Assembly (NCBI GenBank): GCA_023437745.1
Contig: JAEZFI010000045.1
Coordinates: forward strand, 1-62,439
Reading direction: 5' to 3'
DNA: 62,439 nt
From: Actinomycetes bacterium
GTDB lineage: Bacteria; Actinomycetota; Acidimicrobiia; Acidimicrobiales; Microtrichaceae
Under the pieces are notes generated by a model. That model had not been told where the DNA came from, did not search any database, and was given only the letters and a program-made list of their open reading frames with translations. Made by a program: the position numbers and the translations under genes. The number at the start of each line of letters is the position of its first letter. Positions within the stretch are counted from its first letter, which is position 1. Positions 34,585-58,730 of the stretch are shown one piece after another.

Positions 34585-34591
34585 CGGCCGC

Positions 34592-44334: not shown

Positions 44335-44799
44335 ATGGGCGACCGCCAGCGGCTCTCCATCACCATCGACCTCAACGCGACACCGCCGGTCGTCGCGCTG
44401 GCCGGCGAGATCGACGTCGAGACGGCGCGGGACCTCCGGCACGTCCTCGACGAGTTCGCCGGCAGTCCGCAGGACGTGGTGTTCGACATGTCGGCCGTCG
44501 AGTTCATCGACTCCTCGGGCCTCGGTCTCCTCCTGTCGGTGCGCCGCCTCGGGATGCTCACCCTGCGCGGCCTCAGCGATCGGGCCTACCGGTTGTTCGA
44601 GCTGACGGGGCTCCACGAGGTGTTCAACCTCGAGCGGATCGACGCGGTCGTGCTGGACGACGAGGACGACGAGGACGACGTGGACGTCGAGGTGGAGTTG
44701 GTCGACGGCAGCGACGTCGCCGACGTCGCCGACGTCACCGACGGGGCCCGTCGCAACGGCGCGCCCGCGACGACGGCGGACGACTCGTCCGGCGTGTGA
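44335..44799 (+). CDS. STAS-domain anti-sigma factor antagonist with an acidic C-terminal tail
   Basis: LAGEIDVETA...VVFDMSAVEFIDSSGLGLLL is the SpoIIAA/RsbV-like pattern with a conserved Ser. The start is ATG 44335 or GTG 44314. Confidence 0.75.
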   Translation: MGDRQRLSITIDLNATPPVVALAGEIDVETARDLRHVLDEFAGSPQDVVFDMSAVEFIDSSGLGLLLSVRRLGMLTLRGLSDRAYRLFELTGLHEVFNLERIDAVVLDDEDDEDDVDVEVELVDGSDVADVADVTDGARRNGAPATTADDSSGV

Positions 44800-44819
44800 C
44801 CTGGTCCGTGCGGGGGTAT
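44794..44819 (+). promoter_or_regulatory. GTGT-N16-GGGTAT motif upstream of the nucleotidyltransferase gene
   Basis: GTGT 44794-44797 overlaps the STAS stop. GGGTAT is at 44814-44819 and ATG at 44839. Confidence 0.4.
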
Positions 44820-44838
44820 CCCGTGCACAGGTCCCGCC

Positions 44839-45477
44839 ATGTCGAACCCGAAGCACTACCCGAACGGCAACGAGCCGGGGCCTGAGGCGTTCCGTGCCGC
44901 GCTGATCGAGCTGTCGGATGCGCTCGCCGGCACCGAGTTCCGGGCGCTCCTCATGGGCGGGGTGGGTTCCTTCACGCTGGCCCGGCCCCGCCACACCGAC
45001 GACATCGACCTCTTCGTCCACCCTGACGACGTCGCCGAGCTGACGAAGCACCTGGCCGACCGCGGCTTCGAGACCGAGGTCAACGATCCGACCTGGTTGC
45101 ACAAGGCACACCGGTACGGCGTGCTGATCGACCTCATCTTCCGGTCGACCGGCGACATCTACGTCGACGACGAGATGCTCGAGCGCAGCAGCGTCCAGGA
45201 CTACAAGGGCGTCGCGGTCCGCACGGTGTCACCCGAGGACCTGCTCGTCATCAAGGCGGTCGCTGCGGCGGAGCACTCACCGCATCACTGGTACGACGCA
45301 CTGGGCGTGATGCGGCGCTGCGACCTCGACTGGGACTACCTCGCCGACCGCGCCCGACGGCACGGGCCCCGTCGCGTGCTCAGCCTGCTGCTGTACGCCG
45401 AGTCCATCGACCTCGCCGTCCCGACCGAGATCATCGAGTCGCTGTTCCGGACGGTCCACACCGGGGCGACGGCATGA
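44839..45477 (+). CDS. Pol-beta-superfamily nucleotidyltransferase family protein
   Basis: 212 aa. GGVGS-x12-DDIDLFV fits the hG[GS]-x9-13-D-x-D NTase motif. Confidence 0.6.
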   Translation: MSNPKHYPNGNEPGPEAFRAALIELSDALAGTEFRALLMGGVGSFTLARPRHTDDIDLFVHPDDVAELTKHLADRGFETEVNDPTWLHKAHRYGVLIDLIFRSTGDIYVDDEMLERSSVQDYKGVAVRTVSPEDLLVIKAVAAAEHSPHHWYDALGVMRRCDLDWDYLADRARRHGPRRVLSLLLYAESIDLAVPTEIIESLFRTVHTGATA

Positions 45478-45764
45478 CGGATCCCGGCGTCGCGCCGAGC
45501 CACGCCGAGCCCCCCGAGTACGTGCTCGCCCACATCCGGCAGCGGTTGGCGCTGGGTGCGGCGCACGAGCTGGGGATCGCCGTCGAGGTCGGTGAGCTGC
45601 ACGTGACGCTGAGCGGCTGGGTGACCTCGGAGTCGGCCCGCCGCCAGATCGTCGAGGCGGCGGCCGAACTGGCGGTCGACCGCGAGGTGATCGACGACCT
45701 GGAGGTGGCGTCGGCTCACGCGGAGCCGGGTGGTCGCGAGCGCGACGCCGGGTCGACGGGATGA
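45474..45764 (+). CDS. BON-like domain protein
   Basis: 96 aa with an ATGA overlap upstream. IAVEVGELHVTLSGWVTSESARRQIVEAA...VIDDLEV matches the BON pattern. Confidence 0.5.
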   Translation: MTDPGVAPSHAEPPEYVLAHIRQRLALGAAHELGIAVEVGELHVTLSGWVTSESARRQIVEAAAELAVDREVIDDLEVASAHAEPGGRERDAGSTG

Positions 45765-46549
45765 CCTCGCAGGCGGAGCTCGAGGCGCCGACGGTCGCGG
45801 TGGCGGCGGTGGGCGACATCCACGTCGGGGAGGACAGCGTGCTCCCGGACCTCGACGACGTCGGCGAACGCGCCGACCTGCTGCTCCTCGCCGGGGACCT
45901 GACCCGATGCGGCGAGTCCTCGGAGGCGACGCGCCTCGCCGCCCTGCTCCGTGACGTCGCGATCCCCGTCGTCGCCGTGCTCGGCAACCACGACCACCAC
46001 GCGGAGCAGCCCGACGCGCTCGTCGCGACGCTCGAGGACGCGGGGGTCACCGTGCTCGAGCAGTCCGCGACGACGGTCGAGATCCGCGGCCTCACGGTGG
46101 GCGTCGCCGGTGCGAAGGGCTTCGCCGGGGGGATGGCCGACTTCGGGGTCTCGGCGTTCGGTGAGCCGGAGATGAAGGCGTTCGCCGCGCACGGCGGCGT
46201 GGCCAGCGACGGCGTGGCGGCCGCGCTCGCCGGGCTCGACACCGACGTGCGGCTGGTGCTGCTGCACTACTCGCCGATCCTCGCCACCCTCCAGGGTGAA
46301 CGGGCCGAGATCCTGGCGTTCATGGGGGACTACCGCCTCGCGGAGGCGATCGACGCCCACGGGGCCGATCTCGTCCTCCACGGGCACGCGCACCACGGCC
46401 GTGAACGCGGACGCACCCCCGGCGGCATCCCCGTCCGGAACGTGGCGTGGCCCGTGATCCGCTCGCCCTACCGCGTGTACGACGTGCCCGTCGGGGTCGG
46501 GTGGTCGGCGGCGGCGGCGGTCGGCGCAGGTCGACGGTTCTCGGCCTGA
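45761..46549 (+). CDS. Metallophosphoesterase
   Basis: 262 aa with an ATGA overlap upstream. GDIHVG, AGDLT, GNHDHH and HGHAHHG are the calcineurin-like motifs. Confidence 0.75.
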   Translation: MTSQAELEAPTVAVAAVGDIHVGEDSVLPDLDDVGERADLLLLAGDLTRCGESSEATRLAALLRDVAIPVVAVLGNHDHHAEQPDALVATLEDAGVTVLEQSATTVEIRGLTVGVAGAKGFAGGMADFGVSAFGEPEMKAFAAHGGVASDGVAAALAGLDTDVRLVLLHYSPILATLQGERAEILAFMGDYRLAEAIDAHGADLVLHGHAHHGRERGRTPGGIPVRNVAWPVIRSPYRVYDVPVGVGWSAAAAVGAGRRFSA

Positions 46550-46596
46550 GCCGAACGGGGGATGACCCCTAGGACCCGTCCCAGGAGGAATCCGAC

Positions 46597-47013
46597 ATGA
46601 CAGCGATCAGCGCCCTGATGACCCGCGAGCCGTGCTGCGTCTCACGAGGCACGACCCTGCGGGAGGCCGCCGAACGGATGCGCGACCTCGACGTGGGGGA
46701 CGTGCTCGTCGTGGAGGACGACCGCCTCGAAGGCATCATCACCGATCGCGACATCACGGTCAGGGCAGTGGCCGACGGGATGGACGTCGACGTCACCACC
46801 GTGGACGAGATCTGCTCGGGGGACCCGCTCACCGCATCGCCCGAGGAGGACGCCGAGGCGGTCGCGGACCGCATGCGCCAGGGGGCCGTGCGGCGGATCC
46901 CGGTGGTCGAAGGCGGCCGGCCGGTCGGCATCGTCTCGCTCGGGGACCTCGCCATCCGGATGGATCCGAGCTCTGCGCTCGCCGACATCTCGGAGGCGCC
47001 GGCCGACCGGTAG
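46597..47013 (+). CDS. CBS-pair protein, Hrp1-like (second copy)
   Basis: 138 aa; ATG follows CAGGAGGAA. LMTREP...GIITDRDITVR...RRIPVVEG...GIVSLGDLA. Confidence 0.85.
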   Translation: MTAISALMTREPCCVSRGTTLREAAERMRDLDVGDVLVVEDDRLEGIITDRDITVRAVADGMDVDVTTVDEICSGDPLTASPEEDAEAVADRMRQGAVRRIPVVEGGRPVGIVSLGDLAIRMDPSSALADISEAPADR

Positions 47014-47083
47014 CGCGCCCTCCGCGAGCACCCGGCAGCGCGCCTGCAGTTTCTCTGTCATCCGGCCGTCAGGGCTGGAATGA

Positions 47084-47110
47084 TGTTTGTCATCAGCGAA
47101 GGCAGGGGTA
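47084..47110 (+). promoter_or_regulatory. SigB/SigF-type promoter-like motif upstream of the sigma factor gene (GTTT-N17-GGGTAC)
   Basis: GTTT at 47084-47087 and GGGTAC at 47105-47110, 62 nt before ATG 47173. Confidence 0.55.
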
Positions 47111-47172
47111 CGCGCGGCCACAACGGGCCATCGGGACCGCACACATGGCGTGGGGTTCTCGCGGAGGCAGCG

Positions 47173-47922
47173 ATGAAGCCGACGGAGGAAGAGCAGAACG
47201 CGCTCTTCGACGCGTACTGGGAGTCCGGCCGTGCCATCCCGGCGCGTGACCGGATCATCGAGCGCTATCGCTACGTCGCGGACTACCACGCCGCACGCTT
47301 CCACCGCCCGGGCATCGAGACGGACGACCTCCGGCAGCTCGGCCTCCTCGCGATCCTGCGGGCGGTCGACCGGTTCGACCCCGGTCGCGGCGCGTCGTTC
47401 GCGACGTTCGCCGATCGGACCGTGGAGGGCGAGTGCAAGCGGTACCTCCGGGACCGCACGTGGCTGATCCGCCCGCCCCGCCGGCTGCACGACGCGCACC
47501 TCCGCGTGCGTTCGGCGGCCGACACGCTGACGTCGTCGCTCCACCGTTCGCCCACCGTGCCCGAGATCGCTGCCGAGCTGGGGTGGCGGGACGAGGACGT
47601 GCTCGAGGCCTTCGAAGTCTCCGATCTGCGCCATGGCGCGGACATCGACCTGCGAACCGGCCTGGACGGATGGGTCTACGAGCCGGCGGTGGACGACGAG
47701 GAGATGGAGCGGGCGACGGAGAACATGTGGCTGAAGGAGGCGCTGGACCGTGTCGACCCGTCGACGCGCGAGCTGGTGCTCCTGCGCTACTTCAAGGGTC
47801 GGAGCCAGGAGGACCTGGCGCAGGCGTACGGGGTCAGCCAGTCCTACATGTCGCGTCTCCTCCGACGGGCCGTCTCCCGCGTGCGTCAGGCGGGCGAGGT
47901 CGCGGTCGACGCCGCGTCGTGA
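47173..47922 (+). CDS. RNA polymerase sigma factor, SigB/SigF/SigG (group 3) family
   Basis: ATG 47173. Region 2 reads DDLRQLGLLAILRAVDRFDPGRGASFATFADRTVEGECKRYLRD and region 4 reads LRYFKGRSQEDLAQAYGVSQSYMSRLLRRA. Confidence 0.85.
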   Translation: MKPTEEEQNALFDAYWESGRAIPARDRIIERYRYVADYHAARFHRPGIETDDLRQLGLLAILRAVDRFDPGRGASFATFADRTVEGECKRYLRDRTWLIRPPRRLHDAHLRVRSAADTLTSSLHRSPTVPEIAAELGWRDEDVLEAFEVSDLRHGADIDLRTGLDGWVYEPAVDDEEMERATENMWLKEALDRVDPSTRELVLLRYFKGRSQEDLAQAYGVSQSYMSRLLRRAVSRVRQAGEVAVDAAS

Positions 47923-48025: not shown

Positions 48026-49651
48026 GTGGCTGCTGTGCTCGGTCTCAACGCAGTGTTCCATGACCCGGCCGCGGCGCTGGTCGTCGACGGGACCGTCGTC
48101 GCCGCCGCCGAGGAGGAGCGCTTCAGCCGGCGGAAGCACGGCAAGGAGCCCGTGCCGTTCTCGACCTGGGAGCTGCCCGTGGCCGCGGCGACGTGGTGCC
48201 TCGAGGCCGCGGGCATGGAGGCAGCCGATCTCGACGCCATCGCCTACTCGTACGATCCGTCGCTGGCCCCGCCCGCGTCGGAGGATCTGACGGCGAGCGA
48301 ATGGGAGCCGTTGCGGACGCTGTTCGTCCGCCGTGCGCCCCACTTCGTGGCGTCGGCCTTCCCGGGGTCCGAGCGCGTCCCGTTCCGCCACGTCGCCCAC
48401 CACGTCGCGCACGCGGCGTCGGCGTACCTCGGCGGGCCGCACCGCGACTGCGCCGTGCTGGTCGCCGATGGGCGTGGTGAGCGCCACTCGATGCTCGGCG
48501 GGGACGTGGTCGACGGCGCGTTCACGCCGCTCTTCAGCCAGGAGCTGCCGCACTCCCTGGGCTTGCTGTACGAGGAGCTGACCGTCCACTGCGGGTTCCA
48601 CCGTTCGAGCGACGAGTACAAGGTGATGGCGCTGGCGTCGTACGGCACACCGCGGTGGCTCGACGACTTCCGCGAGCTCGTCACCGCCGTGCCGGACGGC
48701 GGCGTCCACACGTCGCCGGTCGACTTCGGCCGATGGGTGCCGAAGGCGACGCAGGGGCCCGGGCAGGGTCACATGGACCTCGCCGCCTCCGTGCAGCGGC
48801 GCCTGGAGGAGGTCCTCCTCGAGACCGGGAGCTGGTTGCACGAGCGAACGGGTCACGACGCCCTGGTGATGGCGGGCGGCGTCGCTCTGAACTGCGTCGC
48901 CAACGAGGTGCTCTGGCGCTCGGGGCCGTTCCGCGACGTGTGGGTGCAACCGGCCGCCGGCGATGCGGGCACCGCGCTCGGCGCAGCGATGTACGTGTCG
49001 GCGGAGCTGGGCGACGACCCCGCCCCCATGGCGACCGCGGCGTTGGGGCGGAGCTGGTCCGACGCAGAGGTCGAGCAGGTGCTCCGCCGGGCGCACGTGC
49101 CCTACGAGCGGCCTCTCGACCTGGCGGGTGCCGTGGCGGACTGCCTGGCCACCGACCACGTCGTCGCATGGTTCCAGGGGGCGAGCGAGTTCGGGCCTCG
49201 TGCGCTCGGTCACCGGAGCCTCCTGGCCGACCCGCGTCCGGCGGGCAACCTCGACCGCTTGAACGACATCAAGGGCCGCGAGGAGTTCCGGCCCGTCGCA
49301 CCGATGGTCACGTTGGAGCGGGCGTCGGAGATCTTCGACGGGCCGATCCCGAGCCCGCACATGCTGTTCGTGCATCGGGTGCGCGACGGCTGGCGCGAGC
49401 GGATCCCGGCGGTCGTGCACGTGGACGGCACCGCCCGCGCCCAGACGGTCGACCGGGCACAGGAGCCGCTGATGGCGTCCGTGCTGGACGGCTTCGACGC
49501 TCGCACCGGCGTGCCGGTGGTCGTCAACACCAGCTTTAACACGGCAGGCCGCCCGATGGTCGACAGCCCGTCGGACGCCCTGGAGTGCTTCGGCAGCAGT
49601 CCGATCGACGTGCTGGCACTCGGTCCGTTCCTCGTCCACCGTCGGAGGTAG
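48026..49651 (+). CDS. Carbamoyltransferase (NodU/CmcH family)
   Basis: GTG 48026 follows GAGGAGGA. VLGLNAVFHDPAAALVVDG...EEERFSRRKH...HHVAHAASAY...VVNTSFN is typical of the family. Confidence 0.85.
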   Translation: MAAVLGLNAVFHDPAAALVVDGTVVAAAEEERFSRRKHGKEPVPFSTWELPVAAATWCLEAAGMEAADLDAIAYSYDPSLAPPASEDLTASEWEPLRTLFVRRAPHFVASAFPGSERVPFRHVAHHVAHAASAYLGGPHRDCAVLVADGRGERHSMLGGDVVDGAFTPLFSQELPHSLGLLYEELTVHCGFHRSSDEYKVMALASYGTPRWLDDFRELVTAVPDGGVHTSPVDFGRWVPKATQGPGQGHMDLAASVQRRLEEVLLETGSWLHERTGHDALVMAGGVALNCVANEVLWRSGPFRDVWVQPAAGDAGTALGAAMYVSAELGDDPAPMATAALGRSWSDAEVEQVLRRAHVPYERPLDLAGAVADCLATDHVVAWFQGASEFGPRALGHRSLLADPRPAGNLDRLNDIKGREEFRPVAPMVTLERASEIFDGPIPSPHMLFVHRVRDGWRERIPAVVHVDGTARAQTVDRAQEPLMASVLDGFDARTGVPVVVNTSFNTAGRPMVDSPSDALECFGSSPIDVLALGPFLVHRRR

Positions 49652-49754
49652 CGGTCGGGGGACCCTCGAACCTCGAAAGGCCGTGAACCCGGCCGGAAGT
49701 CGGTGCCCCGCCACCGCCTTCCGGCCAGGTTCGGCAGTCGACGCTCGCGTCAGC

Positions 49755-50471
49755 TCAGGGCCAGGAGCCCTCGGTGTCGGGGCACACGACCAGCTCCCGC
49801 ACCTCGCAGCCCGGCGGCTGGTCGAGGGCGAAGGCGATCGACGCCGCCACCACCGCGGGATCGTTCAGGTGGGCGTCCGGGCCGGGCCGGTACTGCTCCG
49901 TCCGCCCGTCGAAGAAGGCGGTGCGCATCCCGCCCGGGATGAGCGTGGTGACCCCGACGGTGCCCGCCTCCTCCACCGCGAGGCACCGGGAGAACGCGAG
50001 GACGCCGGCCTTCGACGCGCAGTAGGCGCTGGCGTCGCCCAGCGAGCGCAGGGCGAGCGTCGATGCGACCGTCACGACCCTGCCCCGCGATGCCCGGAGG
50101 GCCGGGAGCGCGGCGCGGACCGTGGCGGCGAGGCCGATGAGGTTGACCTGGATGACCCGCTCCCACGCCTCGGACGGCACCGAGCCCAGCGCTCCGCACG
50201 CGTCGGTCCCCGCCGCGCAGACGAGCGCGTCGAGGCCACGCCCCTCGGTCCAGCTCCGGACTGCGTCCTCGGCGCGCCGGGCGTCGGTGAGGTCGACGGC
50301 CAGGTACTCCAGGTCGCCGTTCGGCGGGTCACGGTCGAGGACCGCGACCTCCCAGCCGCGCCGGCCCAGCAGGTCGACGCATGCGGCGCCCAGGCCCGAC
50401 GACCCCCCGGTGACGAGCGCTCGCCGGGGGATCGGGTTCTCTTCGCTCACGGTGGCACCTCCATGGTTCAT
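49755..50471 (-). CDS. Short-chain dehydrogenase/reductase (classical SDR)
   Basis: ALVTGGSSGLG is the cofactor motif and YCASKAG is the catalytic YxxxK. ATG 50471 makes an ATGA overlap with the hldE stop. GTG 50450, which follows GGAGG, is an alternative start. Confidence 0.8.
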   Translation of the reverse strand: MNHGGATVSEENPIPRRALVTGGSSGLGAACVDLLGRRGWEVAVLDRDPPNGDLEYLAVDLTDARRAEDAVRSWTEGRGLDALVCAAGTDACGALGSVPSEAWERVIQVNLIGLAATVRAALPALRASRGRVVTVASTLALRSLGDASAYCASKAGVLAFSRCLAVEEAGTVGVTTLIPGGMRTAFFDGRTEQYRPGPDAHLNDPAVVAASIAFALDQPPGCEVRELVVCPDTEGSWP

Positions 50472-51844
50472 CCCGTTGCGCCCTGCGCGCTGTGCTCGAT
50501 CAGACGGGACGTGCTGCGTCCCGAGACGTACGGGACCACGACGACCTCGCCACCCCACTCCGCCACGGTGGCGCGCTCGGGGATCGACAGCGGTGAGTGG
50601 TAGTCGCCGCCCTTCACGAACACGTCGGGTCGGAGGCGTCGGAGCGTCTCGACGGGAGTGGGCTCGTCGAAGACCACGACGGCGTCCACGTCCGACATCG
50701 CTCGGAGCACCGAGGCGCGGTCCTCCTGGCCGACCACCGGACGTCCCGGACCCTTGAGATCCGTGACGGAGCGGTCCGAGTTGAGCAGCACGACCAGGCA
50801 GTCGCCCAGCCGCGCAGCAGCACGGATCAGCTCGACGTGGCCGACGTGGATCAGGTCGAAGCAGCCGCCCGTGGCCACCACGACGCCCCCGGCGGCGCGG
50901 ACCCGTCGCACGACGCTCTCGGCATCCTCGCCGGACCGGCCACCGCCCGGGGTCGCCTCCAGAGCGGCGACGCCACCGAGCGCGACGAGCTCGCCCGCCC
51001 GGTGCACGGCGCGGACGACGGCGTCCGAGAGCAGCAGCCCGCTGCCGAGGCACACGGCGAGCTCCCCGGCGAAGCAGTCACCGGCCCCACACGCGTCGCC
51101 CACGACAGGGTGCCCCGTGACGGCGAGGGGCGGGATGCCCTCCTCCACGACGAGGGCACCCTCGTCTCCGCAGGTGAGCGCGACGGCACCCGCACCCGTG
51201 GACGCCCGCAGTCGACGCGCGGCATCGATGCGGCGGGCCATCGGCGACCGGCCGGACGGGCTTCCCTCATCGGCCGTCATCGCGGCGAGCTCGGCCAGGT
51301 TGGGGGTGAGCACCCGTGCGCCGGGCAGCGGCGGGGCCCCTCGCGGGTGCGGATCCCACACCACGGGCGCCGTGCCCTGCAACGCCTTCCTGAGCAGCGG
51401 GTGGCGCAGGAGCCCGAGCCCGTAGTCCGAGGCGAGGACGACGTCCGCGCCTCCACCGACGCGGTCGAGCGAACCGACGACCTGCAGCTCGGGCGGCGTT
51501 GCCGCCCGGTCCACCCTCGTCACGGTGGTGCGGTCGACGCGGATGCGCGTCTTGATCCCCGTGACCCCTTCGCCCTGTGCGAGGTCGACCACCTCGACGC
51601 CGTGCCGAGTCGTCCAGCGCCGCACCTCGTCACCCGCCCGGTCCGGCGCGAGTGCCGTGGCGAGGGTGACCTGCGCACCCGCGCGCTGGGCCAGCACCGC
51701 GGTCAGCGCGGCGCCGCCCCCTCGTCGCGTGGTGTGCGCCTGCGTGACCACCGGCACCGGACCGTCGGGCGAGAGCCGATCCGCTGCCCCCGACACGTCG
51801 ACGTCCAGGAACGCATCGCCGACGACGAGCACCCGAGGCGTCAC
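50468..51844 (-). CDS. hldE: Bifunctional D-beta-D-heptose 7-phosphate kinase / D-beta-D-heptose 1-phosphate adenylyltransferase
   Basis: GTG 51844 has a GTGA overlap with the gmhA stop. The N-terminus is a ribokinase-like domain (VLVVGDAFLD...GAGDCF). The C-terminus is cytidylyltransferase-like (GGCFDLIHVGHVELI). Confidence 0.85.
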   Translation of the reverse strand: MTPRVLVVGDAFLDVDVSGAADRLSPDGPVPVVTQAHTTRRGGGAALTAVLAQRAGAQVTLATALAPDRAGDEVRRWTTRHGVEVVDLAQGEGVTGIKTRIRVDRTTVTRVDRAATPPELQVVGSLDRVGGGADVVLASDYGLGLLRHPLLRKALQGTAPVVWDPHPRGAPPLPGARVLTPNLAELAAMTADEGSPSGRSPMARRIDAARRLRASTGAGAVALTCGDEGALVVEEGIPPLAVTGHPVVGDACGAGDCFAGELAVCLGSGLLLSDAVVRAVHRAGELVALGGVAALEATPGGGRSGEDAESVVRRVRAAGGVVVATGGCFDLIHVGHVELIRAAARLGDCLVVLLNSDRSVTDLKGPGRPVVGQEDRASVLRAMSDVDAVVVFDEPTPVETLRRLRPDVFVKGGDYHSPLSIPERATVAEWGGEVVVVPYVSGRSTSRLIEHSAQGATG

Positions 51845-52464
51845 GTGCCCGGACCCGTCTCGTCGTCGGGCTCCATGCCGCTCAGTTCGCCGTCCAGCGC
51901 CGCGCACAGCAGGTGGATGAGGACCTGGTGGCCCTCCTGGATGTGCGAGGTCGCCCGGGCATCGACCCGGATCGACCGTTCGCACGCCTGCGCCAAGGGT
52001 GAGTCGCCCGGGCCGATCAGACCCCAGGGATGCGCGCCCGACGCCGTCGCCTGCGCAGCTGCGGCCACCAGGTTCGGGCTGCGACCCGACGTGGAGAGCA
52101 GCACGACGACGTCGCCGGGCCGTGCGTGCGCGGCCACCTGACGCTCGATCATGTGCTCGAAGCCGTAGTCGTTCCCCAGCGCGGTCACCACCGCGGGGTC
52201 GGTCACGAGCGACACGGCGGGCAGCGCCGTCCGCTCGCCCTCGAACCGCCCGACGATCTCCGCCACGAGGTGTCCCGACTGGGCCGCCGAGCCCCCGTTC
52301 CCCGCAGCGAGCAGCCTGCCGCCCGCGCCGAACGTCCCAGCGAGCAGCGAGGCCCAGGCAGCGATCTCGTCGACGTGCTGCTCGAGCGACGCCACGGCGT
52401 CGACGGAGCCGTGCAGCCGCGCCCGCAGGTCTCCGGTCGTCGAGGGGCGGTGGTCCGTGATCAC
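51841..52464 (-). CDS. gmhA: D-sedoheptulose 7-phosphate isomerase (SIS domain)
   Basis: GTG 52464 has a GTGA overlap upstream. GNGGSAAQSGHLVAE...NDYGFE...LSTSGRSPN are the GmhA-type SIS motifs. Confidence 0.8.
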   Translation of the reverse strand: MITDHRPSTTGDLRARLHGSVDAVASLEQHVDEIAAWASLLAGTFGAGGRLLAAGNGGSAAQSGHLVAEIVGRFEGERTALPAVSLVTDPAVVTALGNDYGFEHMIERQVAAHARPGDVVVLLSTSGRSPNLVAAAAQATASGAHPWGLIGPGDSPLAQACERSIRVDARATSHIQEGHQVLIHLLCAALDGELSGMEPDDETGPGT

Positions 52465-53693
52465 GACCGCGCCCCCTCGGACACGTTCGCCATGGCCGTC
52501 AACTGGTAGGCCTGCTCCACCTGCTCGGCGATCACGTCCCACGAGTACTGCTCCCGGCCGCGAGCCGCCCCGGCTGTCCCGAGGCGGTGGCGGAGCAGCG
52601 GGTCGGCCGCCAGCCGTGCGATCGACCTGGCGAGCGCAGCCGGGTTGCGGGGTGGCACGACGAGACCGGTCACCTCGTCGACCACCGAGTCGACCAGCCC
52701 GCCGACGGCCGACACGACCACGGGCCGCCCGGACGCCATGATCTCGATCGGCACGATCCCGAAGGGCTCGTACCACGGCACGCACACGGCGAGGTCGTGC
52801 GCGGCGATCACCTGCGGGACCTCCTCCCGCGCCACGCGGCCGACGAAGCGCACGCGATCCGCGACGCCCAGGCGCTCGGCCAGCCCCGACAGGCGGCAGA
52901 CCTCGGGGTCGAGGGACAGCGCGTCGGGGGTCGGTCCGCCGGCCACCGTGAGCTCGACGTCGCGCACGGCCGCCACGGCCCGGATCACGTCATCGACGCC
53001 CTTGCGGGGGACGAGGCGCCCCAGCGACAGCACGCGCAGGCGGTCGTGGCGGATCGGCCGCTTCGGGGTGAAGGCGCCGTGGTCGACACCGCAGGGGACG
53101 ACCGAGATCCGGTTGGGGTCGGCGCCAAGGTCGACGAGCTCGCGCACCTCGTCCTGGCAGGTGGCGATCACTCGGTCGACCGAGTGCAGGAGCTGGGACT
53201 CGACGGCCAGGCGGTTGGGTGGCGAGGTGTCGGCGGCGCCCTGGTGGCGACGCTTGACCACCCCGAGGGCGTGGAAGGTGTGCGCGACGGGCAGGTGGTG
53301 CCGCTGTGCCGCCTGCACCGCGGCGTAGCCCGACATCCAGAAGTGCGAGTGGACCACGTCGGGTGGCGACTCGGCCCAGACCTGGGCGAGGCCGTCGGCG
53401 AACGTGTCCATGTAGGGGAACAGCTCGTCCTTCGGCACCTCGGCCGGAGGGCCGGCGGCGACGTGGTGGACGGTGACGCCGGGGGCCAGCTCGACCCGGT
53501 CGGGGAGCACGGTGCTGTCCCGCCGGGTGTGCACCACCACCTCGGCGCCGCGCCGGGCGAGCCTCGTGGCGAGCTCCGCGACCACCACGTTCTGGCCGCC
53601 GGCGTCCTCACCGCCGAGGACGGCGAGCGGACTCGCGTGCTCGGAGACCATGTCGATCCGGTGGATGCCGCGGGCGAATGATGCATCCGTCAT
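52461..53693 (-). CDS. GT4-family glycosyltransferase (MshA-like architecture)
   Basis: ATG 53693 has an ATGA overlap upstream. GGQNVVVAELA...HSHFWMSG...EPFGIVPIEIMASGRPVV is the GT-B retaining-type pattern. Confidence 0.85.
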   Translation of the reverse strand: MTDASFARGIHRIDMVSEHASPLAVLGGEDAGGQNVVVAELATRLARRGAEVVVHTRRDSTVLPDRVELAPGVTVHHVAAGPPAEVPKDELFPYMDTFADGLAQVWAESPPDVVHSHFWMSGYAAVQAAQRHHLPVAHTFHALGVVKRRHQGAADTSPPNRLAVESQLLHSVDRVIATCQDEVRELVDLGADPNRISVVPCGVDHGAFTPKRPIRHDRLRVLSLGRLVPRKGVDDVIRAVAAVRDVELTVAGGPTPDALSLDPEVCRLSGLAERLGVADRVRFVGRVAREEVPQVIAAHDLAVCVPWYEPFGIVPIEIMASGRPVVVSAVGGLVDSVVDEVTGLVVPPRNPAALARSIARLAADPLLRHRLGTAGAARGREQYSWDVIAEQVEQAYQLTAMANVSEGARS

Positions 53694-54646
53694 GACGAAA
53701 CCTCCTTCAGCACCTCGTCCCAGTCCTGCAGGAACCGCGTCAGCGCGAATCGGGTGCGGACGGCCTCGCGGGCGAGGCTGCCCTCCTCCGTGGCGCGCTC
53801 CGGTGCGACCAGGTAGTCCCGGTACCGCTCGTGCAACTGCCCCACGTCGCTCGCGACGAGACCACCGCCGTTCGGCACCACCGACGGCGCCTCCGTCGCC
53901 GCGACGGCGAGGGGTGGGACGCCCAGCATCATCGACTCGAGGAGCGACAGGCCGAGCGACGTCCACCGGTTGAGGTGGAGGTAGCACCGGCGACGAGCGA
54001 CCTCCCGGTGCAGTTCGGGGTGGGTGAGATCCCCGCGGGGCGCCACGCCCTCGACGCAGTCGGCGACGTCGTCGTTGCCCATCCCGTAGAGGTCGACCGG
54101 GGCGATCCTGGCGAACCCGTCGAGGAGGTCGGTCCCGACCAGGCGCCAGCGACGCACCGCCTCGTTGATCACCGCGGCGGCGGCCGGGACCTCGCCCGAG
54201 TAGCGGTGACCCGGGTCGGGGATCCCGTGCTCCACCACGGTGCTCGGCGTCGCGCCGACGTCCCACAGCAGCGCGTTGTGGTGCGTGACGTGGACGACGA
54301 GGAGCTCCGGCCGATCCGCGGCCCAGTGCCGCATCTCGGCGATGTCGCCCCTCGGCATGTTGTGCTCGAGGACCACGGTGGGGACGTCGATCCCGGGTCG
54401 GAGTCCGAACCAGTCCTCGACCAGTGAGGTCAGCTCGACCGGCCGCTGGACCACCACGACGTCCGGGCGGGCGTACGGGGCGCGCTCCCGTGTGACCTCC
54501 TGCGCCGAGGCAGGCCACGTCCAGGTGGCCGCTCGACCTCGACCGTCGGCGTCCCGCTGCGGGTTCGCCGGGATCAGGTAGTCGTGGGAGCCCTGGACGA
54601 ACGCTGTCGTCCACGACCCGTGCTGATGCCAGATCGCCACCCTCAT
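53690..54646 (-). CDS. Glycosyltransferase (GT1/GT4-like C-terminal domain)
   Basis: ATG 54646 has an ATGA overlap upstream. 318 aa. SLGLSLLESMMLGVPPLAVA is the nucleotide-sugar-binding block. Confidence 0.65.
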   Translation of the reverse strand: MRVAIWHQHGSWTTAFVQGSHDYLIPANPQRDADGRGRAATWTWPASAQEVTRERAPYARPDVVVVQRPVELTSLVEDWFGLRPGIDVPTVVLEHNMPRGDIAEMRHWAADRPELLVVHVTHHNALLWDVGATPSTVVEHGIPDPGHRYSGEVPAAAAVINEAVRRWRLVGTDLLDGFARIAPVDLYGMGNDDVADCVEGVAPRGDLTHPELHREVARRRCYLHLNRWTSLGLSLLESMMLGVPPLAVAATEAPSVVPNGGGLVASDVGQLHERYRDYLVAPERATEEGSLAREAVRTRFALTRFLQDWDEVLKEVSS

Positions 54647-56154
54647 CGCCCGGGCCCCGGAGTCAGGAGCGCCAGTTCGGTCGCTGCGGCGAGTCGGTCC
54701 ACGACCGTCGGCGCAGCCAGCACCTCCGCCGGCCTGGTCGCTGCGGTCGGCACCATGATCGCCGTGGCGCCTGCTGCGAGGGCGGCCTCGACGTCGGCGC
54801 CGATGTCGCCGATGACGACGCACCGGCGCGGATCGACGCCCATCGAGGCCGCCGCGTCGATGACGAGGCCGGGGTGGGGCTTGCGGCGGGTGCAGCCGTC
54901 ACCGTCGACGTGGCCGCACCACTCCCACACGTCGAAGGGGCCGAGGACCTCCTCGACCCGCGAGTTCACTGCGCGCACGTCGTCGGGGGAGAGCAGGCCA
55001 CGTCCGATGCCGCTCTGGTTCGACACCACACCGACGGCCACACCGGCGCAGCGCGCGTTGCGCAGCGCGGCGGATCCGTCGGGAACCGGGTCCACCCTCT
55101 CCGGGTCGCCGTTGTAGGGCACGTCGACGATGAGCGTGCCGTCGCGGTCGAAGAGGAGGCCGTCGACGCGAGGGGCGCGTGACCAGCCGCGCCACAGACC
55201 CTGCAGCCACCACCCGACCGCGGCAGGAGGGATCGCCAGGGAGGTGGCGAACAGCGCGGCGAGCTCACCGGGACGCCTGCTCGCACCCCACCAGCGCCGG
55301 GCGGTGAGCTCCGCGGTGGCGGTGCCCCACACGAGCGCAGCGACACGCCCTCGCCTCGAACGACGGCCGCTGACCGCCAGCAGCGCGACGGCCACCGTCG
55401 CCGCGTGGATCGGCCGTCGACCACGCGGCACGTCGCCGAGGCGCCGCCAGCCCCACCCGTGCCGGAGGAGGAGGCGGGCGTCGTCGGCGTTCCCCCGCTG
55501 GCGTCGGACGCTCTCCCACCAGGGCGCCTCTGCAACGGGGTGAGTGGAACGCCGAGCGCCCCGCACCAACGTCCAACCGGCACGGCGGAGGCGGATCGCC
55601 AGGTCGGTGTCCTCGCGGAACGCGTGGGGGAACGTCGGGTCGAAACCGCCGATCGAACGGAGCGCGTCGACCTTGACGGCCATGTCGGCGGTGATCCACG
55701 CCGCCTGCTCGAGGGCCCTCACGCTGTTCTGCCAATCGGTCGAGCGGCCGGCCACCGGGACCTGCACCCGACCCTGGACGGCACCGACCTCCGGGCGGCC
55801 GGCGACGGCGACGAGGTCGGCCGCCAGGGTGGACGACCACTCGGGTCCGACCCGGACGTCGTCGTCCACGAAGACGATCCACGAGGCCTCGGTGCCGCTC
55901 CAACCGACGTTCCGGGCGAAGGCCGGCCCCCGCCCACCCGAGCGCCGCACCACCACTCCGGCCCCGAGGTCGAGTGGTGCGCTCGGCGCCGGGCGGTCGT
56001 CCACCACCACGATGCGGGTGGTGGGCGGGACCTGCGCACGCAGGGCGGCGACCAGCGTCGCGAGCGAGCTCCGTCCGACCGTCGGCACCACGACGTCGTA
56101 CGTGACCGGTGACCCTGGGGTCGGGAGACGGGAGGTGGAAGCGGCTCTGCGCAT
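54643..56154 (-). CDS. GT2 glycosyltransferase - membrane linker - D,D-heptose 1,7-bisphosphate phosphatase (GmhB) fusion
   Basis: GT2 block: YDVVVPTVGR...VVVDDRP...FVDDDV. Hydrophobic segments follow, then the HAD-IIIA block: LLFDRDGTL...VSNQSG...CGHVDGDGCTRRKP...VIGD. The start is ATG 56154 (10 nt after a GGGTAG box) or ATG 56172. Confidence 0.8.
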   Translation of the reverse strand: MRRAASTSRLPTPGSPVTYDVVVPTVGRSSLATLVAALRAQVPPTTRIVVVDDRPAPSAPLDLGAGVVVRRSGGRGPAFARNVGWSGTEASWIVFVDDDVRVGPEWSSTLAADLVAVAGRPEVGAVQGRVQVPVAGRSTDWQNSVRALEQAAWITADMAVKVDALRSIGGFDPTFPHAFREDTDLAIRLRRAGWTLVRGARRSTHPVAEAPWWESVRRQRGNADDARLLLRHGWGWRRLGDVPRGRRPIHAATVAVALLAVSGRRSRRGRVAALVWGTATAELTARRWWGASRRPGELAALFATSLAIPPAAVGWWLQGLWRGWSRAPRVDGLLFDRDGTLIVDVPYNGDPERVDPVPDGSAALRNARCAGVAVGVVSNQSGIGRGLLSPDDVRAVNSRVEEVLGPFDVWEWCGHVDGDGCTRRKPHPGLVIDAAASMGVDPRRCVVIGDIGADVEAALAAGATAIMVPTAATRPAEVLAAPTVVDRLAAATELALLTPGPGR

Positions 56155-56164
56155 CCACTTCGGC

Positions 56165-56190
56165 CTACCCATCGACCTCGCGGTCAGAAC
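56165..56190 (-). promoter_or_regulatory. GTTC-N16-GGGTAG motif, 10 nt before ATG 56154 of the GT2-gmhB operon
   Basis: On the plus strand, ctaccc is at 56165-56170 and gaac at 56187-56190. Confidence 0.5.
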
Positions 56191-56217
56191 AGTCCTCGTG
56201 ACGAATTCTCTGCCGTG

Positions 56218-56242
56218 GTTCGCGACGCTCGGGGGCGGGTAG
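56218..56242 (+). promoter_or_regulatory. GTTC-N15-GGGTAG motif upstream of the GT9 pair
   Basis: GTTC 56218-56221, GGGTAG 56237-56242, GTG 56282. Confidence 0.5.
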
Positions 56243-56281
56243 TGGGCGGACAGGAGGTGCGGGAGACGACTCCCGACACAC

Positions 56282-57331
56282 GTGGAACGACCACCTGATC
56301 GATCGACCAGCCAGGGGTCGCGCACGGTCCTCATCGTGCGCGCCGACAACCTCGGGGACGTGCTGCTGGCCGGGCCGGCGGTGCGCGCGGTCGCCTCCAG
56401 CGGTGCACGTGTGGTGATGGCCGTGTCGCCTCGCGGGCGGCCTGCGGCCGAGCGGCTGCCGGGGATCGGGCACGTCGTCGAGGTGGAGCTGCCGTGGATC
56501 AGCGCCGACCCCGTGCCGTACGACGAAGCGCAGCACGAGCGACTGGTCGAGTCGCTGCGGGCGGTGCGCGCGGACGAGGCGCTGGTGCTCACCTCGTACC
56601 ACCAGTCGGCGCTACCGACCGCCCTGCTCCTGCGCCTGGCCGGGGTCCCGTGGATCACCGCGATCTCCGAGGACTACCCCGGGTCCCTCCTCGACGTCCG
56701 GGTCCCGCCCCCGCCACCGATGCACGAGGTCGAGCGCATGCTCGCCGTGGCGGCCGCCGCGGGCTACGTGCTGGAGGAGGGCGACGACCGGTCGCTGCAC
56801 ATCGCCGGCGCCCCCACGCCCGGCGACTGGTCCGAAGTGGGTCCCTACGTGGTGGTGCACCCCGGCTGCAGCGTCCCGGCGCGCACCCTCGATCCGGACC
56901 GGTGGGCGGCGATCGTGGCGGAGCTCGGCCGCCGCACCGCCGTGGTGGTCACGGGCTCGGTCGCCGAGCGCCGGCTGGTCGATCGTGTCCTCGCCCACCA
57001 GCCGGACGGGGTGCGTGCGGCGATCACCTCGAGGTTCGACGACCTGGCGTGCGTCCTCGCCGGCGCCTCGGCGGTGGTCGTCGGCAACACGGGTCCGGCC
57101 CACCTCGCTGCGGCGCTGGGCGTACCCGTGGTCTCGATCTTCGCGCCGACGGTGGATCCCGACGCATGGCGCCCGTGGGGCGTTCCCCATCGGCTGCTCG
57201 GCCGACTCGACATCGCGTGCGCCGGGTGTCGGAGCCGGGTCTGTCCCCTCGACGAGCAGGCGTGCCTCGCCGCAGTGCGGCCGGGGGACGTGGTGGCCGC
57301 CGTCGCCGAGCTGGCCGGCGTTCTCCGATGA
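56282..57331 (+). CDS. GT9-family glycosyltransferase (heptosyltransferase-like)
   Basis: 349 aa with GTG start. VLIVRADNLGDVLLAGPA...VGNTGPAHLAAALGVPVVSIF are GT9 hallmarks. Confidence 0.8.
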   Translation: MERPPDRSTSQGSRTVLIVRADNLGDVLLAGPAVRAVASSGARVVMAVSPRGRPAAERLPGIGHVVEVELPWISADPVPYDEAQHERLVESLRAVRADEALVLTSYHQSALPTALLLRLAGVPWITAISEDYPGSLLDVRVPPPPPMHEVERMLAVAAAAGYVLEEGDDRSLHIAGAPTPGDWSEVGPYVVVHPGCSVPARTLDPDRWAAIVAELGRRTAVVVTGSVAERRLVDRVLAHQPDGVRAAITSRFDDLACVLAGASAVVVGNTGPAHLAAALGVPVVSIFAPTVDPDAWRPWGVPHRLLGRLDIACAGCRSRVCPLDEQACLAAVRPGDVVAAVAELAGVLR

Positions 57332-58413
57332 CCCGCTACGTGGCGCTGAGGGCGAGCGGGCTCGGCGACCTGCTCTGCGTGGTGCCGGCGTTGTCCGCGT
57401 TGCGCTCCGCAGGCCGCACCGAGCTGTGGACGTCGCCGTGGCTGGTGCCGTTCGCCCGCGCCCACGGGCTGGGTCACGAGGTGCGCCCAGTGGCTTCGAT
57501 CGCCGACGTGCCGCCTGCCTCGCTCGAGGGTGCCATCGCGGTGAACCTCCACGGCAGCGGACCCGAATCGCACCGCTTCCTCCTCACCGCGGGCCCGCGG
57601 GTGCTGTGGGGCCACCGGCACGGCGACGTCCCGGAGTCGTCGGACGGGCCGACGTGGCGCGAGGGCGAGCACGAGGTCGATCGGTGGCGCCGACTGCTCG
57701 GGCACTACGGCGTCGACGCCCACCGCACCTCGCTCCGACTGACGCCTCCCGTGACGCCGGTGCCTGGCGCGCCCGTCCTGCTCCACGTCGGCGCCGGGGC
57801 GCCGGGGAGACGCTGGCCAGCGGACCGCTGGTCGCGCATCGCGGCGCGCCTCCGGCGTGACGGGATGCCCGTGCGACTCTCGGGCGGTCCCGGGGAGGAC
57901 CGTCGGCTCCGGTGGATCGCCCAGTCGTCCCGGGTGGGAGAGCGAGCGATCGTGCCGACGAACCTCGACCTGCTGTCGTTCTCCGCCGTGGTGGCCGGCG
58001 CCGCCGCCGTCGTCGTGGGGGACACCGGGGTCGCCCACCTGGCCACTGCGTTCGACCGGCCGAGCGTGGTGCTGTTCGGTCCCGTGCCGCCCGCGGAATG
58101 GGGGCCGCCACCCGGTCCTCGTCACATCGCGCTCTGGGCGGGGCGCCGCGGTGACCCGCACGGTCGCGACCTGGACCCCGGGCTGGCGGAGCTGGGCGTC
58201 CACGAGGTCTGGCGTGCGTTGCGCCGGATCCTCGACGGGGCGGCAGCAGAGCCGACTCCCGGTCGGTGGGCCGACGAACCGACCGCGAGTGCCCGTCAGG
58301 CGGGTCGGCCCCGCTCGTCCATCTTCGGATCGGCGGGCGAGGTGCTCGACTGCGGCTCGCCGTCGGCCGAGAGCGTCGAGCCGTCCAGTTCGGGCAGCCG
58401 GCCGCCCCAGTAG
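57328..58413 (+). CDS. GT9-family glycosyltransferase (heptosyltransferase-like), second copy
   Basis: ATG 57328 has an ATGA overlap upstream. ALRASGLGDLLCVVPA...VGDTGVAHLATAFDRPSVVLFG. Its low-complexity tail overlaps the convergent gene. Confidence 0.75.
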   Translation: MTRYVALRASGLGDLLCVVPALSALRSAGRTELWTSPWLVPFARAHGLGHEVRPVASIADVPPASLEGAIAVNLHGSGPESHRFLLTAGPRVLWGHRHGDVPESSDGPTWREGEHEVDRWRRLLGHYGVDAHRTSLRLTPPVTPVPGAPVLLHVGAGAPGRRWPADRWSRIAARLRRDGMPVRLSGGPGEDRRLRWIAQSSRVGERAIVPTNLDLLSFSAVVAGAAAVVVGDTGVAHLATAFDRPSVVLFGPVPPAEWGPPPGPRHIALWAGRRGDPHGRDLDPGLAELGVHEVWRALRRILDGAAAEPTPGRWADEPTASARQAGRPRSSIFGSAGEVLDCGSPSAESVEPSSSGSRPPQ

Positions 58414-58730
58414 ACGAGGCCCACGGTGCCGCCGGCGATCGCCCCGATGATCGCGCACGTGAGGATGCGCAGGCCCAGCGCGACGTCCGCGTCACCCCAG
58501 CCGATGAGGCCGAACGGACTCAGGAGCAGCGCGCCGATGACGCCACCGACGAGCGCCCCGGCGAGGCCGCCCTTGGTCTGTCCGCCGACGTGGGTGGCCT
58601 CGTGGTGGTGGCGCTCCATGCGGTCGGCCACGGAGTGGCCGCGTTCGGGGACCGGATCCCGGTCGTCGGGCTGGGCGAGGTCGTCGATCGCCCGCTCGAC
58701 CTGCCGAACCTGTCGTTGTCTCGTGGTCAT
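58296..58730 (-). CDS. Glycine-zipper membrane protein (stress-protein-like)
   Basis: 144 aa. GGLAGALVGGVIGALLL and IIGAIAGGTVG segments. The ATG lies exactly 9 nt after a GGGTAG box. Confidence 0.6.
   Translation of the reverse strand: MTTRQRQVRQVERAIDDLAQPDDRDPVPERGHSVADRMERHHHEATHVGGQTKGGLAGALVGGVIGALLLSPFGLIGWGDADVALGLRILTCAIIGAIAGGTVGLVYWGGRLPELDGSTLSADGEPQSSTSPADPKMDERGRPA

Follow-up and report, generated by a model that had tools for sequence, protein, structure and literature searches.

A cwg-type heptose cassette of Actinomycetota in rearranged form in an uncultured member of the Acidimicrobiia

Nine genes in three transcription units

We analysed a 62,439-nucleotide stretch of actinobacterial DNA (the window; contig JAEZFI010000045.1 of GenBank assembly GCA_023437745.1, family Microtrichaceae) that contains a cassette of nine genes predicted to supply an activated heptose, transfer it together with other sugars and carbamoylate the product (Table 1). 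The window matches, identically, part of an 85-kb metagenome scaffold (ENA ERZ28593428), so its source organism is uncultured. GC content is 72% across the window and is uniform between the cassette region and its flanks. As open reading frame (ORF) lists are rich in artefacts at this GC content, each gene claimed in a first-pass annotation of the sequence was checked by codon-position GC content and by homology. All nine ORFs were intact at the positions in Table 1, with a third-position GC content (GC3) of 0.88–0.94 compared with 0.48–0.61 at second positions (GC2). Families were assigned by Pfam and NCBIfam profile searches, and structures were predicted with AlphaFold2 and compared using Foldseek. 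All nine families were as first annotated, one compact glycosyltransferase (GTx) being recognized from the GT-B fold of its model, and homology searches moved none of the GT9, HldE and GmhA proteins into another family. Scores against the NCBIfam models of named enzymes (NodU, HldE and its domains, GmhA, GmhB, MshA and the lipopolysaccharide (LPS) heptosyltransferases) were all below curated cut-offs, indicating that the cassette proteins are divergent family members and not close orthologues of the Gram-negative enzymes.

Six 4-nt junctions are present in the sequence, four of them ATGA and two GTGA; the GmhA gene has a GTGA overlap at each end, and GT9a and GT9b are joined by ATGA. The tight coupling first annotated within these units is visible at each junction, but the overlap between HldE and the short-chain dehydrogenase/reductase (SDR) is uncertain. 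The SDR could start at ATG 50471 (238 amino acids, with the ATGA overlap) or at GTG 50450 (231 amino acids), 21 nt further downstream. A GGAGG motif lies 7 nt before GTG 50450, and the public gene call is of 231 amino acids. This start seems the more likely one, which makes the overlap uncertain and leaves a 17-nt gap as the alternative. For GT9a, the start at 56282 is better than the public start at 56336, which would cut off the first beta-strand of the alignment with WaaC and WaaF. The carbamoyltransferase gene has a GTG start with GGAGGA upstream. It converges on the SDR gene, and the inverted repeat between the two resembles a bidirectional terminator; the repeat has no T-run and was therefore missed by a consensus terminator scan. 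Around the cluster, we found no convincing sigma-70-like promoters or T-rich terminators.

Table 1 Features of the cassette region in the window.
Feature	Position	Strand	Supporting matches and description
O-carbamoyltransferase (NodU/CmcH/TobZ family), 541 amino acids (CarbT)	48026-49651	+	Carbam_trans_N 165 bits, Carbam_trans_C 219 bits
Inverted repeat, 21-nt arms, 6-nt loop	49685-49732		Arms 90% complementary
Classical SDR, last operon gene	49755-50471	-	adh_short 117 bits
Bifunctional HldE	50468-51844	-	PfkB and CTP_transf_like; PRK11316 238 bits
GmhA	51841-52464	-	SIS_2 domain; PRK13936 147 bits, TIGR00441 126 bits
GT4, sucrose-phosphate-synthase/MshA-like branch, retaining	52461-53693	-	Glycos_transf_1 and Glyco_transf_4
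GTx, compact GT4-like GT-B	53690-54646	-	AlphaFold2 fold; below Pfam thresholds
GT2-GmhB fusion, first operon gene	54643-56154	-	GT2 (GT-A) residues 21-219, helices residues 247-325, HAD-IIIA/GmhB residues 333-491
Divergent intergenic region, 127 bp, presumed promoter region	56155-56281		Separates the six-gene operon from the GT9 pair
GT9a, heptosyltransferase-family GT-B, NTG-type	56282-57331	+	Glyco_transf_9 78 bits
GT9b, heptosyltransferase-family GT-B, DTG-type	57328-58413	+	Glyco_transf_9 72 bits

Three of the proteins are predicted to make the heptose donor. GmhA carries GNGGS and STSG motifs and matches both models of SIS-fold sedoheptulose 7-phosphate isomerases, albeit below their cut-offs. 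HldE aligns with PRK11316 over residues 4–451, scores 124 bits for rfaE domain I and 167 bits for domain II, and has a GAGD motif in its kinase part and HVGH in its nucleotidyltransferase part, identifying it as a predicted heptose 7-phosphate 1-kinase of PfkB fold joined to a heptose 1-phosphate nucleotidyltransferase. Its orthologue in Streptomyces rimosus is named rfaE2 by PGAP. The HAD-IIIA domain of the fusion protein superposes, as an AlphaFold2 model, on the GmhB structures 3L8H, 3L8E and 2GMW (template-modelling (TM) score 0.77–0.80) and has all four HAD motifs (DxDxT, SNQSG, RKP and GDxxxD). Both model and motifs point to a heptose 1,7-bisphosphate 7-phosphatase of the GmhB type. This domain scores 90 bits against the beta-anomer model PRK08942 versus 33 bits against the alpha-anomer model, which, together with the PfkB-type kinase, argues for a beta-series nucleoside diphosphate (NDP)-heptose rather than the GDP-alpha-heptose that S-layer and capsule pathways use. 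In the zinc loop (CxH...CxC), the fourth ligand is an arginine at residue 423 (CTRRKP). The closest homologue (P0002) also has arginine there (CDRRKP), and cysteine occupies the position in at least 90% of 40 homologues, which looks like a lineage-specific loss of one zinc ligand.

The enzyme families for ADP-heptose, the sugar nucleotide first proposed, are all present, but other nucleotides could also be carried by the donor. HldE ends in YVSGRSTS, which resembles the STTR5 motif, and about 40 of 69 cassette HldE orthologues have xxxGRSTT. A commentary (PMC11573728) reports that the STTR5 motif marks enzymes that also accept CTP or UTP, and HldE may therefore also make CDP- or UDP-heptose. 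As first noted, an HldD-like extended SDR occurs nowhere in the window and no lipid A genes are visible; genes for lipid A, Kdo and HldD were absent from all 62 kb as well as from the surroundings of the cassette in 80 other loci. The absence of HldD suggests that the D,D-heptose isomer is probably the one used.

The GT2–GmhB fusion is modelled with high confidence (predicted local distance difference test (pLDDT) 93), and its DDD, DRDGT and GDxxxD motifs do not vary among 40 homologues. The two domains are linked by three helices rich in Ala, Arg and Trp with invariant polar residues. These helices had initially been read as hydrophobic segments that would tie precursor supply to a membrane glycosyltransferase, a reading that these predictions do not support: the best 19-residue segment has a Hessa dG of +4.9 kcal/mol (median of the 40 homologues, +5.1), compared with -1.9 for an MFS transporter in the window used as a control. 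Kyte–Doolittle and Hessa scans of the window protein and the 40 homologues gave no likely inserting segment, and we rejected the linker as a membrane anchor. A structural match to a Chlorella virus hyaluronan synthase (405 columns, root-mean-square deviation 8.8, TM score 0.35) was also too weak to support a membrane-embedded architecture. The linker helices may contact the membrane interface; in Streptomyces, where GT2 stands alone, they are part of that protein.

The GD motif near the N terminus is retained in both GT9 proteins. GT9a can be aligned over its full length with WaaF (1PSW) and with WaaC, the alignment taking in the N-terminal motif LGDVL, and has NTG in place of DTG, as do all of its orthologues in which the motif was found (37 of 46 ORFs). 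This substitution may reflect a different donor or a different geometry. GT9b keeps GDTG as in WaaC, which it matches with an E value of 2.5e-12, and ends in a Pro/Ser/Ala-rich tail of about 60 residues that has no counterpart in orthologues, matches to which stop near residue 302–330. On the opposite strand, a 144-amino-acid ORF of high GC3 (58296–58730) shares part of its positions with this tail and is annotated as a gene in the public record; either the ORF or the tail may be the real one. Searches of the PDB with both GT9 proteins (E <= 0.01) picked up WaaC and WaaF together with one unnamed GT9 entry, 3TOV.

These searches bear on the idea that the GT9 enzymes O-heptosylate proteins in the manner of TibC or AAH, with the other glycosyltransferases extending the glycan. 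Such ADP-heptose-dependent, GT9-related enzymes are established in Proteobacteria, and the cassette enzymes are predicted to be cytoplasmic, as protein heptosylation would have it. However, no TibC-type enzyme was among the PDB matches, no conserved candidate substrate protein adjoins the cassette and the known protein glycosylation of Actinomycetes is Pmt/Ppm1 mannosylation. We consider protein heptosylation improbable.

GT4 best matches 6KIH (Tll1590, 228 bits), which we take to be a cyanobacterial sucrose-phosphate synthase, and Corynebacterium glutamicum MshA (185 bits). Two basic residues, K88 and R161, are conserved throughout the GT4 family and correspond to K78 and R154 of MshA, which presumably bind the acceptor phosphate. 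The Tyr and Thr with which MshA contacts this phosphate are replaced by Phe and Ala across the whole family. GTx gives a weak match to a GT1 C-terminal domain in Pfam; its model (pLDDT 90.9) has a GT-B fold, with BshA as the best Foldseek match (E value 9e-12, TM score 0.72), and the protein has more than 3,383 homologues. The carbamoyltransferase is a full-length enzyme of the TobZ/NovN/GdmN type, with PDB sequence matches to NovN (291 bits), TobZ (280 bits) and GdmN (255 bits). It is the best conserved of the cassette proteins, with 59–68% identity to its orthologues in GTDB loci; the SDR, whose in-cassette copies share 50–63% identity, joins it as one of the two best conserved members.

Distribution of the cassette and its relation to Streptomyces cwg

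The fusion protein was at first thought to be unusual, but it is the normal form in Actinomycetota; its full-length homologues, about 50% identical to it, number more than 4,252. Nor is the cluster an oddity of this genome: a related cluster, cwg, was described as early as 2002. A scan of one genome per GTDB species placed the fusion in all the major classes of Actinomycetota and in at least 579 species genomes. The classes represented are Actinomycetes, Acidimicrobiia, Thermoleophilia, Rubrobacteria and Nitriliruptoria (Euzebyales), and one Dormibacteria metagenome-assembled genome (MAG) also carries the fusion. We searched 83 loci from these five classes and the Dormibacteria MAG with the nine window proteins, using tblastn. 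Near the fusion gene, GT9a was found in 79 loci, GmhA in 73, CarbT, HldE and GT9b in 71 each, GT4 in 70, SDR in 68 and GTx in 65. Retention at this level excludes chance clustering and bears out the synteny across Actinomycetota that the first-pass annotation had put forward as a check.

The canonical cassette lies on one strand in the order CarbT-GT2/GmhB-GT9a-GTx-GT4-GmhA-HldE-SDR-GT9b. Rubrobacter xylanophilus has eight of the nine genes in a single overlapping operon, only the in-cassette SDR being missing. The window holds a rearranged cassette, in which the GT9 pair now diverges from the other genes and the carbamoyltransferase gene converges on them. Its two nearest relatives, both NCBI MAGs with 59–79% identity, have exactly the same arrangement, which is therefore a stable feature of this lineage. 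The Candidatus Dormibacteria locus (L052; JBHELP010000180.1) encodes CarbT, GT2/GmhB, GT9a, GT4, GmhA and HldE with 43–61% identity; horizontal transfer, wider ancestry or a binning error could each explain a cassette outside Actinomycetota.

Several other genes recur beside the cassette elsewhere, including those for an extended SDR resembling UXS or 4,6-dehydratases (34 loci), a small GT2 (29), UDP-glucose dehydrogenase (19), aldehyde dehydrogenase (17) and polysaccharide pyruvyl transferase (8). The extended SDR (EPI1) was considered as a candidate HldD and rejected, as it is more like dTDP-glucose 4,6-dehydratase, UXS and GalE than like HldD (129 versus 50 bits); it is absent from the window.

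A specialized-metabolite cluster for a heptose antibiotic of the septacidin or hygromycin B type would also contain several of these genes. The actinomycete pathways for those compounds likewise use sedoheptulose 7-phosphate and GmhA-, HldE- and GmhB-type enzymes, and O-carbamoyltransferases of the TobZ/NovN family are common in antibiotic pathways. However, presence of the cassette in at least 579 species genomes is a breadth atypical of a specialized metabolite, the 10 kb to each side of it contain no genes for a polyketide synthase (PKS), a non-ribosomal peptide synthetase (NRPS), an aminotransferase or nucleoside or aminocyclitol synthesis, and its GC content does not differ from that of its flanks. 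Without adjacent scaffold or tailoring genes and with a phylum-wide distribution, an antibiotic cluster, which the first-pass annotation had named as one outcome that would overturn it, is very improbable.

The cassette also occurs on a 511-kb linear replicon of S. rimosus, identified by a tblastn search of PLSDB, with 41–63% identity to the window proteins. The gene order there is GT9, pyruvyl transferase, UDP-glucuronate decarboxylase-like, carbamoyltransferase, GT, HAD-IIIA, GT9, GT, GT, SIS, rfaE2, GT, GT. This order agrees with the published annotation of cwg in Streptomyces coelicolor, a 12-gene operon (SCO6179–6190, cwgA–L) (Hong, Paget and Buttner 2002; Tran et al. 2019, PMC6767563). 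The annotation lists a nucleotide-sugar dehydratase (SCO6179), transferases (SCO6180 and SCO6181), a 'dehydratase' (SCO6182), a heptosyltransferase (SCO6183), two further transferases (SCO6184 and SCO6185), a phosphoheptose isomerase (SCO6186), a bifunctional synthase/transferase (SCO6187) and another transferase (SCO6188). The 'dehydratase' label of SCO6182 is presumably an old HisB-type name for the HAD-IIIA protein. Sigma-E, which responds to envelope stress in Streptomyces, controls the operon directly, and vancomycin induces it. Its 'cell wall glycan' product has been undefined since 2002; our literature search found no later characterization of cwg.

Streptomyces cwg and the window share the same core set and the same internal order of CarbT, GT2, HAD/GmhB, GT9, GT, GT4, GmhA and HldE. 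The window region is a copy of the known but functionally uncharacterized cwg-type heptose cassette that is conserved across Actinomycetota. The two versions also differ. GT2 and GmhB are fused in the window and encoded by separate genes in Streptomyces; the classical SDR of the window is absent from the S. rimosus cluster; and the Streptomyces cluster has a UXS-like dehydratase, a pyruvyl transferase and, downstream, two additional glycosyltransferases, none of which is encoded in the window. Whereas cwg forms one operon, the window has a divergent GT9 pair and a convergent carbamoyltransferase gene. To what was already described for cwg, our analysis adds a definition of the canonical nine-gene cassette and shows that GT2 and GmhB occur both fused and split, that GT9a forms an NTG subfamily, that HldE has an STTR5-like motif, that membrane and export components are absent and that the architecture is rearranged in this lineage.

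The flanks of the cassette hold genes of other kinds, and the actinobacterial context first described for the window was confirmed by its SigB/F/G-family sigma factor, anti-sigma antagonist and TreXYZ-like set. The stretch 5' of the carbamoyltransferase gene and on its strand (44335–47922, +) is a string of stress-regulation genes, encoding a STAS anti-sigma antagonist, a nucleotidyltransferase, a BON protein, a metallophosphoesterase, a CBS pair and the sigma factor. We rejected these genes as a part of the cassette: a sigma homologue lies within 12 kb in 9 of the 83 loci, and the STAS, BON and CBS genes do so in 1–5. A gene for a response-regulator/PP2C (SpoIIE-type) phosphatase (10253–11449, -) is 33 kb from the string. 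Between the two, and 5.5 kb from the carbamoyltransferase gene, is one for a 395-amino-acid Zn-dependent alcohol dehydrogenase (41298–42485, +) that is 70% identical to an alcohol dehydrogenase found beside the heptose cassette in about seven other genomes; in several of these, including Rubrobacter and Conexibacter, an extended SDR adjoins it. Its proximity in the window could be loose linkage or coincidence. A LigD-like gene (42710–44200, +; 496 amino acids) encodes 3'-phosphoesterase and primase-polymerase domains and gives no ligase-domain match; at the equivalent position in a related MAG, adjoining the carbamoyltransferase gene, is a 768-amino-acid LigD with a weak ligase-domain match. 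A molybdopterin oxidoreductase gene lies 3' of the GT9 pair. Further away are three consecutive alpha-amylase-family genes (32863–39366, -) of a TreX/TreY/TreZ-type maltooligosyl-trehalose pathway, and an adjacent pair encoding a CrtO-like glycosyl-carotenoid acyltransferase and a GT2/GT21-like glycosyltransferase (19096–21569, -), which suggests synthesis of a glycosylated, acylated carotenoid.

Predicted product and its destination

From these gene identities, the operon structure, the orthology and the synteny, we infer a series of enzymatic steps together with an acceptor, a sugar order and a final location. GmhA would isomerize sedoheptulose 7-phosphate, the kinase domain of HldE would yield the beta-1,7-bisphosphate and the GmhB domain of the fusion would strip its 7-phosphate. 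GT9a and GT9b would transfer heptose, and other sugars would be added by GT4, GTx and the GT2 domain. The TobZ/NovN-type enzyme would O-carbamoylate a hydroxyl, probably a primary one, and the classical SDR would act on a sugar or on the acceptor. The acceptor would most probably be membrane-bound, with export by machinery encoded elsewhere, as in the assembly of the LPS inner core.

A conserved unit of two GT9 enzymes, three further glycosyltransferases and an O-carbamoyltransferase makes a heptose-containing, probably carbamoylated glycoconjugate a reasonable product. To that extent the proposal of the first-pass annotation, a possibly carbamoylated heptose glycan or glycoconjugate of the envelope, is supported; three indirect lines suggest the envelope destination, namely the control of cwg by sigma-E and vancomycin, the association with pyruvyl transferase and the analogy with LPS. 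Transmembrane segments are predicted in none of the nine proteins, and as all nine are predicted to be soluble or peripheral, assembly is placed on the cytoplasmic side. On balance, we favour assembly, at the cytoplasmic face, of a carbamoylated heptose glycoconjugate that is destined for the envelope and resembles the LPS inner core, a reading that we hold to be probable but far from certain. The likeliest end product is a glycoconjugate of the cell envelope.

Several results weigh against this assignment to the envelope or qualify its basis. Apart from the lack of transmembrane segments, the neighbourhoods of the cassette in 80 loci share no conserved gene for a transporter, an ABC exporter, a flippase, a priming phosphoglycosyltransferase, a polymerase or an LCP ligase. 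The scores for the enzyme-specific NCBIfam models fall short of curated cut-offs, and GT4 is nearest to enzymes that glycosylate soluble sugar phosphates. The connection to cwg is made at the sequence level through S. rimosus and through annotation order for S. coelicolor. In the window, none of the three transcription units is preceded by a match to a loose form of the sigma-E promoter motif AAC, 16–17 nt, CGTCT; the background across the window is about one match per kb, and the motif may be specific to Streptomyces. Finally, our literature search turned up no heptose-containing wall polymer or glycolipid of Actinomycetota.

Some of these points would fit an intracellular product that is never exported, such as a heptose oligosaccharide or small glycoconjugate that GT4 starts on a phosphorylated soluble primer. 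It could be a stress- or osmo-protective or a storage glycan, comparable with the polymethylated polysaccharides of mycobacteria or with mycothiol-type conjugates. Nine proteins without transmembrane segments and without a linked exporter would fit such a product. The same holds, however, for the LPS core enzymes, which are soluble or peripheral and not linked to an exporter either, and the missing segments therefore do not discriminate between the two destinations. The best solved relatives of GT4, 6KIH and MshA, presumably act on sugar phosphates, and the family-wide K88 and R161 match the putative phosphate binders of MshA; the phosphate-contacting hydroxyls of MshA, however, are lost across the GT4 family (Y to F and T to A). 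Among the structural neighbours of GTx are enzymes that use small acceptors, malate in the case of BshA and sucrose in that of tll1591 according to their PDB entry titles, and GlgM, which we take to use glucose 1-phosphate, also ranks high. S. coelicolor cwgA and a Frankia heptosyltransferase respond to salt, and in the window the carbamoyltransferase gene comes after the string of SigB/F-type stress genes. By contrast, cwg is induced through sigma-E by cell-wall antibiotics, and pyruvyl transferase, which is typical of surface polymers, recurs beside the cassette. We regard an intracellular glycan as rather unlikely, though a serious competitor to the envelope glycoconjugate.

A broader proposition, which we put forward tentatively as possible but doubtful, is that most Actinomycetota, from Rubrobacter to Streptomyces, might make an undescribed, LPS-core-like, carbamoylated D,D-heptose oligosaccharide on a membrane lipid and display it on the envelope. 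It would be assembled by soluble GT9, GT4 and GT2 enzymes, and the window would encode one version of the pathway. Were this true, classical cell-wall chemistry would have missed an envelope component present throughout the phylum, and ALPK1-active NDP-heptoses would have a source in monoderm bacteria.

The commentary cited above (PMC11573728) regards what heptose does beyond the LPS of Gram-negative bacteria as an open question. A fixed, phylum-wide cassette of nine genes gives geneticists and glycan chemists who work with cultured species a better-defined target, with its highly conserved CarbT and SDR, its NTG subfamily of GT9a and its lack of a linked exporter as its most notable features. 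The window, from an uncultured organism, adds an architectural variant and not a new system.

Comparison with other heptose systems

Heptose activation in Actinobacteria has been addressed by Tang et al. 2022 (Sci China Life Sci) and Tang et al. 2024 (Science); as summarized in the same commentary (PMC11573728), these works address nucleotide-sugar enzymes, and a title that it cites reports a tridomain type of NDP-heptose synthetase as conserved in Actinobacteria. HldE of the window is of the didomain kinase/nucleotidyltransferase type. The tridomain isomerase/kinase/nucleotidyltransferase type occurs within 4 of 65 related cassettes, from Georgenia (twice), Sanguibacter and a Nocardioidaceae MAG (L044, L047, L061 and L074), where GmhA and HldE are fused in frame.

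The pathways to septacidin, hygromycin B and GDP-D-glycero-alpha-D-manno-heptose resemble that of the window in starting at sedoheptulose 7-phosphate, using GmhA- and GmhB-type enzymes and operating in Gram-positive bacteria. The kinase of the window is of the PfkB/HldE beta-type and not of the GHMP HddA type. Antibiotic tailoring genes are lacking in the window, and the cassette is phylum-wide.

In LPS systems, the GalN transferase WaaG of Pseudomonas, which we take to be a GT4 enzyme, offers a counterpart to the further sugar transferases of the window. The window, which comes from an actinobacterium, lacks the lipid A, Kdo, WaaP-type heptose kinase, HldD and MsbA genes of the LPS system, and its GT9 proteins are distant from WaaC and WaaF (E values of 1e-7 to 1e-12). 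The Pseudomonas inner core consists of GalN-HepII-HepI with a 7-O-carbamoyl group on HepII and is made by WaaC, WaaF, WaaG and WapO/PA5005 (PMC8005017). WapO is likened here to the window carbamoyltransferase by its role. Both systems combine two GT9 enzymes, a further sugar transferase, a carbamoyltransferase, a supply of NDP-heptose and cytoplasmic enzymes, and, by this analogy, the Pseudomonas LPS inner core would be the closest biochemical analogue of the predicted product.

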